Below are positions 26,837-27,028 of a DNA stretch of 64,000 nucleotides, one piece after another. Origin of the DNA: Bdellovibrionales bacterium (GTDB lineage: Bacteria; Pseudomonadota; Alphaproteobacteria; UBA9219); NCBI GenBank assembly GCA_041662785.1, contig JBAZRW010000001.1, forward strand, positions 261,256-325,255, read 5' to 3'. A program made the position numbers and the translations under genes. The notes beneath the pieces were generated by a model. It ran no database searches and was not told the DNA's origin. It saw only the letters and a list, made by a program, of their open reading frames with translations. How positions within the stretch are numbered: the first letter of the stretch is position 1; each line of letters begins with the position of its first letter.

Positions 26837-27028
26837 CTTCGTCATCCCGCACGAAGTCCCGCGTATAGCGGGACGAAGATGCGGGACCCAGCTGAAAGCT
26901 TTTTTCTTGCCGCAATAACCACGGCATCGTCCCCAGCCCCCTGGGTCCCGCATCTTCGCGATGCTAACGCATCGCTTCGCCTGCCCCGCGAAGCCCAAGG
27001 GGCGTAGAGGGGTGCGGGATGACGAAAG
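26837..27028. repeat. About 190-bp nested-palindrome element (REP/BIME- or MITE-like)
   Basis: Outer inverted repeats cttcgtcatcccgcac (26837-26852) / gtgcgggatgacgaa (27012-27026). Inner inverted repeats gaagatgcgggaccc / gggtcccgcatcttc. Additional local hairpins gtcccgc-gtata-gcgggac, gcgatgc-taac-gcatcgc, cttcgc-ctgcccc-gcgaag. The overlapping ORFs (26621-27177) are judged spurious. Confidence 0.6.

Follow-up and report, generated by a model that had tools for sequence, protein, structure and literature searches.

The whole stretch of DNA analysed here, 64,000 nucleotides long and hereafter called the window, carries a nested palindrome of about 190 bp (26837-27028) in the interval that separates the groEL stop codon from that of a convergent minus-strand ORF (27087-27785). 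The palindrome had been pointed out in an earlier note made from the sequence alone, and it is real: it is seen in the sequence and by the repeat finder, and it folds with a z-score of about -9 against shuffled sequences. Its full extent is about 26822-27040, slightly beyond the limits first reported. The groEL terminator lies upstream of the element and is separate from it, the element beginning 26 nt after the terminator. The features of the locus are listed below.

25094-26746: groEL ORF (Pfam Cpn60)
26780-26811: intrinsic terminator of groEL, complete, with a 14-bp stem and a T run
26837-26852 and 27012-27026: outer arms, CTTCGTCATCCCGCAC and GTGCGGGATGACGAA, 15 bp perfect (repeat finder)
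26874-26891 and 26941-26958: inner arms, CGAAGATGCGGGACCCAG and CTGGGTCCCGCATCTTCG, 18 bp perfect (repeat finder)
26856-26874: local hairpin, GTCCCGC-GTATA-GCGGGAC
26958-26975: local hairpin, GCGATGC-TAAC-GCATCGC
within 26984-27011: local hairpin, weaker

The outer inverted repeat, announced as 15-16 nt long, pairs perfectly over 15 bp and, at 83% complementarity, over 24 nt; the extension runs weakly into a C-rich tract on the left (26822-26836) and a G-rich one on the right (27027-27040). The second inverted pair is present as claimed, but it is longer than had been stated, and of the local hairpins described in the earlier note, two are clear and one is weaker. Folded as RNA, the sequence 26822-27040 reaches -122.9 kcal/mol on the plus strand (z -9.4) and -134 kcal/mol on the minus strand (z -8.8); folded as DNA, it reaches -71.5 kcal/mol (z -9.4), and none of 200 shuffled sequences folds as stably. 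Five ORFs of 72-146 amino acids overlap the element, and the suspicion that such predicted ORFs are artefacts was well founded: an 89-aa translation across the element has no homologue among 5.8 billion proteins, and this search yielded no further copies of the element. A BLASTN search of the element against 72,556 plasmids gave no match, and the element is single-copy within the 64-kb window. An exact occurrence of the arm core CGTCATCCCGC at 2612 was considered as a further copy and rejected: it is situated inside a coding sequence, has no hairpin partner and looks like a chance match.

The identity of the repeat emerged from a full-text literature search with its terminal motif, which led to the description of the Ssn nucleases (PMC11893778). 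There, the NTS is defined as an oriented hairpin repeat of 28 nt, CGTCATTCCCGCGMAVGCGGGAATCYRG, which contains about half of the Neisseria dRS3 repeats; NTS copies flank ssnA, encoding a 94-aa single-domain GIY-YIG protein, and the authors themselves remark on the insertion-sequence-like look of the NTS-ssnA-NTS arrangement (PMC11893778). SsnA binds the hairpin in single-stranded DNA only, and its cut falls a few nucleotides upstream; binding depends critically on the C that directly follows the palindrome, cleavage depends in the same way on the three upstream nucleotides, and the loop proved dispensable in the experiments, with extensions tolerated at its position (PMC11893778). During Neisseria transformation, incoming single-stranded DNA that carries the motif is exposed to Ssn cleavage (PMC11893778). 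Generalised across phyla, the NTS becomes the Ssn-related motif (SRM), HGTCWYN(0-2)YYVSBRHN(0-5)WNVSBRGN(0-2)RNCYNB, which measures 20-50 nt as a whole, with a loop of N0-5 in the search pattern (PMC11893778, Nat Commun 2025).

The exact published SRM pattern occurs in the window only at 23590-23617 (minus strand) and 23646-23673 (plus strand), that is, two matches against a mean of 0.26 in shuffled sequences. In a relaxed SRM scan, the two arms of the element at 26837 fit every position of the pattern bar the length of the loop, and the element reads as the following series of parts.

26822-26839: left border tract, C-rich (GCCTCCTCCCCCATGCTT), preceding the left arm (13-copy alignment; the nhmmer profile match starts at 26830)
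26840-26891, plus strand: left SRM-like arm (relaxed SRM scan; single-stranded DNA fold; 95.6% identity to an ssn 5' flank)
26892-26940, plus strand: spacer of 49 nt, starting with the box CTGAAAGCTTTTT, its remainder conserved among the gene-less copies of a related metagenome-assembled genome (MAG)
26941-27024, minus strand: right SRM-like arm, the minus strand reading CGTCA-TCCCGCA ... TGCGGGA-CCCAG
27025-27040: right border tract, purine/G-rich (AAAGAAGGAGGGAAGA), mirroring the left tract (repeat finder, alignment; the profile match ends at 27034)

The leader HGTCWY is found as CGTCAT at 26840-26845 (plus) and 27024-27019 (minus), and the stem and tail of the pattern (YYVSBR...VSBRG, RNCYNB, with a C after the palindrome) appear in both arms as TCCCGCA/TGCGGGA followed by CCCAG. 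In the left arm, the leader CGTCA precedes a stem formed by TCCCGCA (26845-26851) and TGCGGGA (26880-26886), the 3' tail is CCCAG, and the loop of 26 nt contains the nested hairpin at 26856-26874. The stem of the right arm joins 26946-26952 with 27013-27019 (plus-strand coordinates), and its loop of 58 nt contains the hairpin at 26958-26975 plus some 32 nt (26980-27011) that were seen in no other copy. With loops of this size, in arms of 52 and 84 nt, both arms exceed the N0-5 of the published pattern and are missed by it. The mismatch lies with the search pattern and need not mean a loss of function, because the NTS loop is dispensable and extendable (PMC11893778). When each arm is folded alone as single-stranded DNA, the stem TCCCGCA/TGCGGGA closes the inner hairpin(s) and leaves 5' CGTCA and 3' CCCAG unpaired, which is the geometry of the NTS. 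By comparison with the published SsnA experiments, the conserved positions are the ones critical there, and the insert sits where extension is tolerated.

The nested appearance of the palindrome is thus explained by two copies of a self-palindromic motif placed in inverted orientation. Since the two arms carry different, non-complementary inserts, the conserved unit is the hairpin of each arm, and the long-range pairing between the arms is a by-product of the inverted orientation. We have not filed the element as a plain SRM member, since it departs from the SRM in loop length and from the dRS3 consensus, and it is without MITE-type duplications.

The earlier note had tied the element to a second palindrome, at 23590-23673, through the arm core CGTCATCCCGC. 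The core does not recur there exactly, the sequence reading CGTCATCCCCGC and TGTCATTCCCGC, but the motif is of the same kind, and the kinship of the element at 26837 with the one at 23581-23682 was correctly perceived, given that the published SRM pattern matches precisely the two arms of the latter.

23590-23617, minus strand: canonical short-loop SRM (TGTCATTCCCGCGAAAGCGGGGATCCCG), one arm of the doublet (exact match of the published pattern, inverted repeat)
23646-23673, plus strand: canonical short-loop SRM (CGTCATCCCCGCGAAAGCGGGGATCCCG), second arm of the doublet (pattern match; single-stranded DNA fold with z -4.6)

These SRMs stand tail-to-tail with the GTCAT ends inward, in arms of 36 nt that are 92% complementary. 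Altogether, there are four SRM-type units in the 64-kb window, against fewer than 0.4 expected. The neighbours of the doublet are an ORF of the Wzy_C type (22345-23748, minus) and a SpoU methylase gene (23805-24266, plus); as the doublet falls within the opening 170 nt of the longest Wzy ORF, the Wzy gene probably begins further downstream.

Arms of the expanded type flank a gene in related DNA. In a MAG labelled Micavibrio (locus L002, 1697-2175), a loop-expanded SRM is followed by TTGAAAGCT, an ORF of 94 codons (94 aa; 1786-2070), TTTTCAAC, a hairpin and an SRM in reverse complement, and a gene-less copy lies directly beside this cassette, at 2240-2421. The ORF specifies a single GIY-YIG domain (Pfam PF01541, residues 3-76, E=5e-16) and no extra domain; its single-domain homologues, about 95 aa in length and nearly all within 90-110 aa, number more than 2100, and the nearest solved structure is 1zg2, a UPF0213 GIY-YIG protein (E=1.5e-5). 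On metagenome contigs L057 and L058, a protein 81% identical to that of L002 occurs with the same arms in the same arrangement, and the 5' flank of its gene shares 95.6% identity, over 68 nt, with window positions 26837-26904, which comprise the left arm and the TGAAAGCTTTTT box. The box CTGAAAGCTTTTT that opens the spacer is also found 3' of the 5' SRM in ssn cassettes. A 71%-identical protein (L056) is accompanied by ordinary short-loop SRMs and then the same TTGAAAGCTTTTT box; these short loops suggest that the expanded loops arose within this lineage. Judged by their Pfam GIY-YIG domain, their size and the flanking motifs, the L002 and L057 proteins are Ssn-like, putative nucleases. A motif scan and TBLASTN brought to light no ssn/GIY-YIG gene or pseudogene in the 64-kb window. 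As for the spacer, the part traceable to the untranslated regions of the cassettes is limited to the first 13 nt or so (the TTGAAAGCT box), and the remainder is not derivable from the cassettes examined.

To describe the distribution of the repeat, a collection with one genome per bacterial or archaeal species was scanned for the two termini at the right spacing, CGTCATCCCGC-N(148-178)-GCGGGATMACG, in the exact form CGTCATCCCGC-N(148-178)-GCGGGATGACG. The scan returned 55 loci, some 41 of which are SRM-type according to a reading of the matches and a motif test; the number of loci expected by chance is about 1-3, a rough estimate from pattern length and database size. The architecture common to these approximately 41 loci is CGTCATCCCGC - hairpin - GCGGGA(C/T)CCAG - spacer - CTGG(G/A)TCCCGC - hairpin - GCGGGATGACG. 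Their hosts, named here by the labels of the public records, include among the Alphaproteobacteria a MAG labelled Micavibrio aeruginosavorus (DYNT01; 10 loci), a Hyphomicrobiaceae MAG (10 loci) and a Rhodobiaceae MAG, and otherwise Coxiellaceae and other Gammaproteobacteria, Gemmatimonadetes, Bacteroidota, Binatia and Actinobacteria. Of the 55 loci, about 14 were set aside as chance matches in coding sequences or as unrelated inverted repeats that share the termini only (L015, L017, L018, L021, L026, L027, L031, L036, L037, L040, L047, L051, L053 and L054); one of these (L053, 2369-2566) and the pair L021/L036 are long inverted repeats with only the terminal 11-mer in common. At one further locus (L023, 3382-3576), the outer pair terminated by CGTCATCCCGC encloses a different inner SRM variant (CGTCATTGCGAGCG...GCAATCCAG).

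True sequence homologues of the window element were found, among the scanned hosts, in the Micavibrio-labelled MAG only, the examined parts of which hold at least 12 full copies. Thirteen copies, window element included, align over their full length, and the alignment also covers the non-palindromic spacer, which gives the orientation; in most copies a pyrimidine-rich tract precedes CGTCAT. A profile HMM made from twelve MAG copies, with the window element left out, matched the window at 26830-27034 with 128.7 bits (E=2.6e-38) on the plus strand and 66.3 bits on the minus strand, and nothing else in it. The suggestion of a dispersed repeat family, put forward as REP/BIME- or MITE-like, has accordingly been upheld as to dispersal, with these full-length copies in a related MAG and a frame shared by loci in several phyla, and the family can now be named: it is an NTS/SRM hairpin repeat tied to Ssn GIY-YIG nucleases, neither a REP of the RAYT type nor a MITE of the DDE type.

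Across 31 distinct units from Micavibrio-type loci, an invariant frame, CGTCATCCCGCAC-[insert]-GATGCGGGACCCAG, encloses inserts of five hairpin types; in the window element, these are GTCCCGC-N5-GCGGGAC in the left arm and GCGATGC-N4-GCATCGC, together with the unique segment of about 32 nt, in the right arm. When 16 distinct units are aligned, no variation is seen at the eight outer pairs, and five inner pairs remain paired through two-sided changes, which reflect the exchange of whole hairpin modules. Within one element, the inserts of the two arms usually differ, so that the arms lack complementarity over their full extent.

In many of the MAG copies, the terminal half-motif, together with about 10-30 nt of border, is present in tandem one to several times more, e.g., GTGCGGGATGACGAAGAACRGGA repeated (L006, 5705-5790 and 5951-5985; L003, 363-400; L030, 5888-5935; L033, 5934-6130 and 6284-6338; L041, 467-503; L045, 458-487), and the window copy has none; these could be footprints of nuclease action, of repair or of replication slippage. 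No consistent target-site duplication was seen among 11 copies. A single one of them (L032) is flanked by a direct repeat, AGAGGTGTCTATT / AGAGGGTGTCTATT (GGTGTCTATT), at 1015-1034 and 1227-1245, the sole candidate for such a duplication. The Hyphomicrobiaceae MAG (JANMGQ01) harbours at least 10 copies of a distinct family, about 172 bp long, which keeps the outer and inner frame but has inserts and a spacer of its own (L008, L013, L016, L028, L029, L042-L044, L050 and L055). On the minus strand of L050 (2-181), a partial GIY-YIG protein, cut by the end of the locus, is 38% identical to the L002 protein.

The position after groEL is not a conserved property of the element. At three metagenome loci where GroEL is 89-92% identical over the aligned segments, the terminator is kept after groEL and is followed by other genes, without the element; nucleotide homology to the window ends at 26739-26752 and resumes at 27109 or later. 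Loci with relatives of the downstream gene (best 63% identity) yielded no precise empty site; in three of them groEL is convergent, with other genes in between. Lying where groEL and the next gene converge, the element probably plays no specific part for groEL, and a role in groEL expression is unlikely because a complete terminator comes first.

The downstream ORF (27087-27785, minus) specifies CxxC...CxxC motifs, has no Pfam match and has relatives in 23 metagenome loci; no paralogue of it was found in the window. The neighbours of its distant relatives match the window at 55.9-58.7 kb (55877-58696) and not the genes adjacent in the window, which indicates rearrangement between lineages. At locus L060, an SRM-type hairpin, GGGATGCCCGCCTTCGCGGGCATGAC...GTCACCCCCGCGAAGGCGGGGGTCCC, occurs on the opposite strand about 430-520 nt past the end of the downstream-gene match (around 3840-3930), and another SRM-type hairpin is found near 4500 in L059; the GroEL proteins of L059 and L060 are about 92% identical over the aligned segments. 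SRM-type hairpins elsewhere in this neighbourhood imply that the motif class is present across the lineage, at different sites. Elsewhere in the window, direct repeats of about 200-230 nt with 75-76% identity, some 1.6 kb apart (17104-17682 and 18698-19285, also 16244-16269), suggest two or three tandem paralogous genes.

We consider it very probable (roughly 0.85) that the element is a DNA-level repeat, consisting of two inverted SRMs around a 49-nt spacer: an SRM-ssn-SRM cassette without the ssn gene, NIME/MITE-like in form and comparable to a lone dRS3-RS-dRS3 unit of Neisseria or to a REPIN. The fold invites another reading, namely a structured RNA, either a small RNA, as the earlier note had offered in alternative, or a 3'-UTR element that regulates or stabilises the transcript of either groEL or the convergent gene beyond it. 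Transcripts can be stabilised or terminated by REP-like elements in other settings, and the predicted fold is very stable on both strands. Equal folding of both strands is nonetheless what is expected of a DNA palindrome, and the copies vary by swapping whole hairpin modules. The Rfam scan that the earlier note proposed (Rfam 15) gave no match at gathering score in the whole window, the local matches at E<=10 being weak and centred on the terminator. A complete intrinsic terminator stands before the element, no promoter-like site was found, and relatives whose GroEL is 89-92% identical do not have the element behind groEL. An RNA function is therefore, in our estimation, very unlikely.

Two classical repeat types resemble the element in outline. 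Were it a REP doublet (REPIN/BIME) mobilised by a RAYT, an enzyme of the IS200/IS605-type Y1 family, a GT[AG]G tetranucleotide leader would be typical; the conserved leader here is CGTCA. In architecture the two agree, each having a spacer between inverted palindromic units and many intergenic copies, but the arms here bear unlike inserts and, in contrast to REPIN arms, are not each other's complement along their length, and the gene between such arms is, in the loci inspected, that of a GIY-YIG nuclease and not of a Y1 transposase. The analogy with REPs is drawn in the Ssn paper itself (PMC11893778), and as an explanation of this element we hold mobilisation by a RAYT to be more improbable still than an RNA function. 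Least credible is a classical MITE, i.e., an internally deleted insertion sequence of a DDE transposase with terminal inverted repeats. Perfect terminal inverted repeats of 15 bp, a length of about 190 bp and multiple copies would all suit a MITE, but the direct repeat at one of 11 copies does not amount to a consistent target-site duplication, the termini are an oriented SRM motif common to several phyla, and between such ends no transposase is present in the loci inspected, where the full-length version encodes only the 94-aa GIY-YIG protein. Somewhat less remote, though still improbable, is the use of the element as a recombination target of an IS110/Piv-type recombinase, as dRS3 is for the filamentous prophages of Neisseria. 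Integration into dRS3, which forms the core of the NTS, by a phage-encoded recombinase is documented, and such a use would be compatible with the SRM reading; no such recombinase or prophage was noticed adjoining the element.

For an SRM cassette devoid of its gene, a mode of action can be proposed from the published SsnA biochemistry. Whenever the DNA is single-stranded, as in replication, transformation or conjugation, each strand would show exactly one arm in sense orientation. A cognate Ssn would bind the hairpin of that sense arm and cut a few nucleotides 5' of it, which would be the outer edge of the element. The unit might then spread as a selfish, non-autonomous element, the gene-less copies being non-autonomous derivatives, or it might mark DNA for single-strand restriction, as in Neisseria transformation. 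Mobility is deduced here and not demonstrated, given that no empty site was found in a close relative and there is no consistent target-site duplication. Tentatively, and with the odds rather against it, the loop-expanded gene-less doublets could be non-autonomous mobile elements moved or copied in trans by Ssn on single-stranded DNA, a GIY-YIG counterpart of the REPIN/RAYT system, in which the loop would serve as a cargo slot for exchanged hairpin modules. If true, the insertion-sequence likeness of NTS-ssnA-NTS would turn into a concrete, testable pair of autonomous and non-autonomous elements; cassette ends of about 170-195 bp without a gene, in many copies and beside a full cassette, are the pattern expected of an autonomous element with its miniature derivatives.

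The Ssn nucleases and their hairpin motifs were first described in 2025. Natural motifs with 26-58 nt of additional loop hairpins escape the published pattern, so that motif counts made with it may be too low. For annotation, the element accounts for the spurious ORFs clustered downstream of groEL and speaks against annotating a small RNA at that place. The class as such is already published; the loop-expanded motifs and the miniature cassettes are the new part, and they bear on whether Ssn cassettes are mobile.

Among known systems, REPIN/BIME-RAYT (PMC2817692, PMC3333891, as cited in PMC11893778) compares by analogy. In that system, inverted palindromic doublets spread in genomes, the gene of the enzyme is flanked by the units and the enzyme acts on hairpins in single-stranded DNA, all of which has its parallel here, whereas the enzyme is of the HUH/Y1 and not the GIY-YIG class, the leader differs and the window arms are not fully complementary. 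Next closest are the NIMEs of Neisseria (dRS3-RS-dRS3; PMC1797815), which have a 50-150 bp spacer between inverted GC-rich palindromic repeats of the same motif class, a spacer lower in G+C than the arms, and an intergenic location. The dRS3 consensus ATTCCCN8GGGAAT is unmatched in the window element, whose arms read TCCCGCA...TGCGGGA, without ATTCCC or GGGAAT; moreover, NIMEs are a category set up for Neisseria and are usually strung together in long arrays, in contrast to the single unit in this alphaproteobacterium-like genome. The closest system is SRM/NTS-Ssn (PMC11893778). The window element differs from it by its loops, which consist of nested hairpins and measure 26 and 58 nt where 0-5 nt would be usual, and by its form: an inverted pair that lacks the gene, encloses a conserved spacer and makes up a unit of about 170-195 bp, for which we found no description in the main text of that paper. 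It has in common with SRM/NTS the oriented frame, with its CGTCAT leader, CCCGC/GCGGG stem and C(C)AG tail right after the stem, the occurrence in multiple copies and across phyla, the canonical SRMs nearby at 23590-23673, and arms that in relatives (L002, L057) flank a 94-aa GIY-YIG gene.
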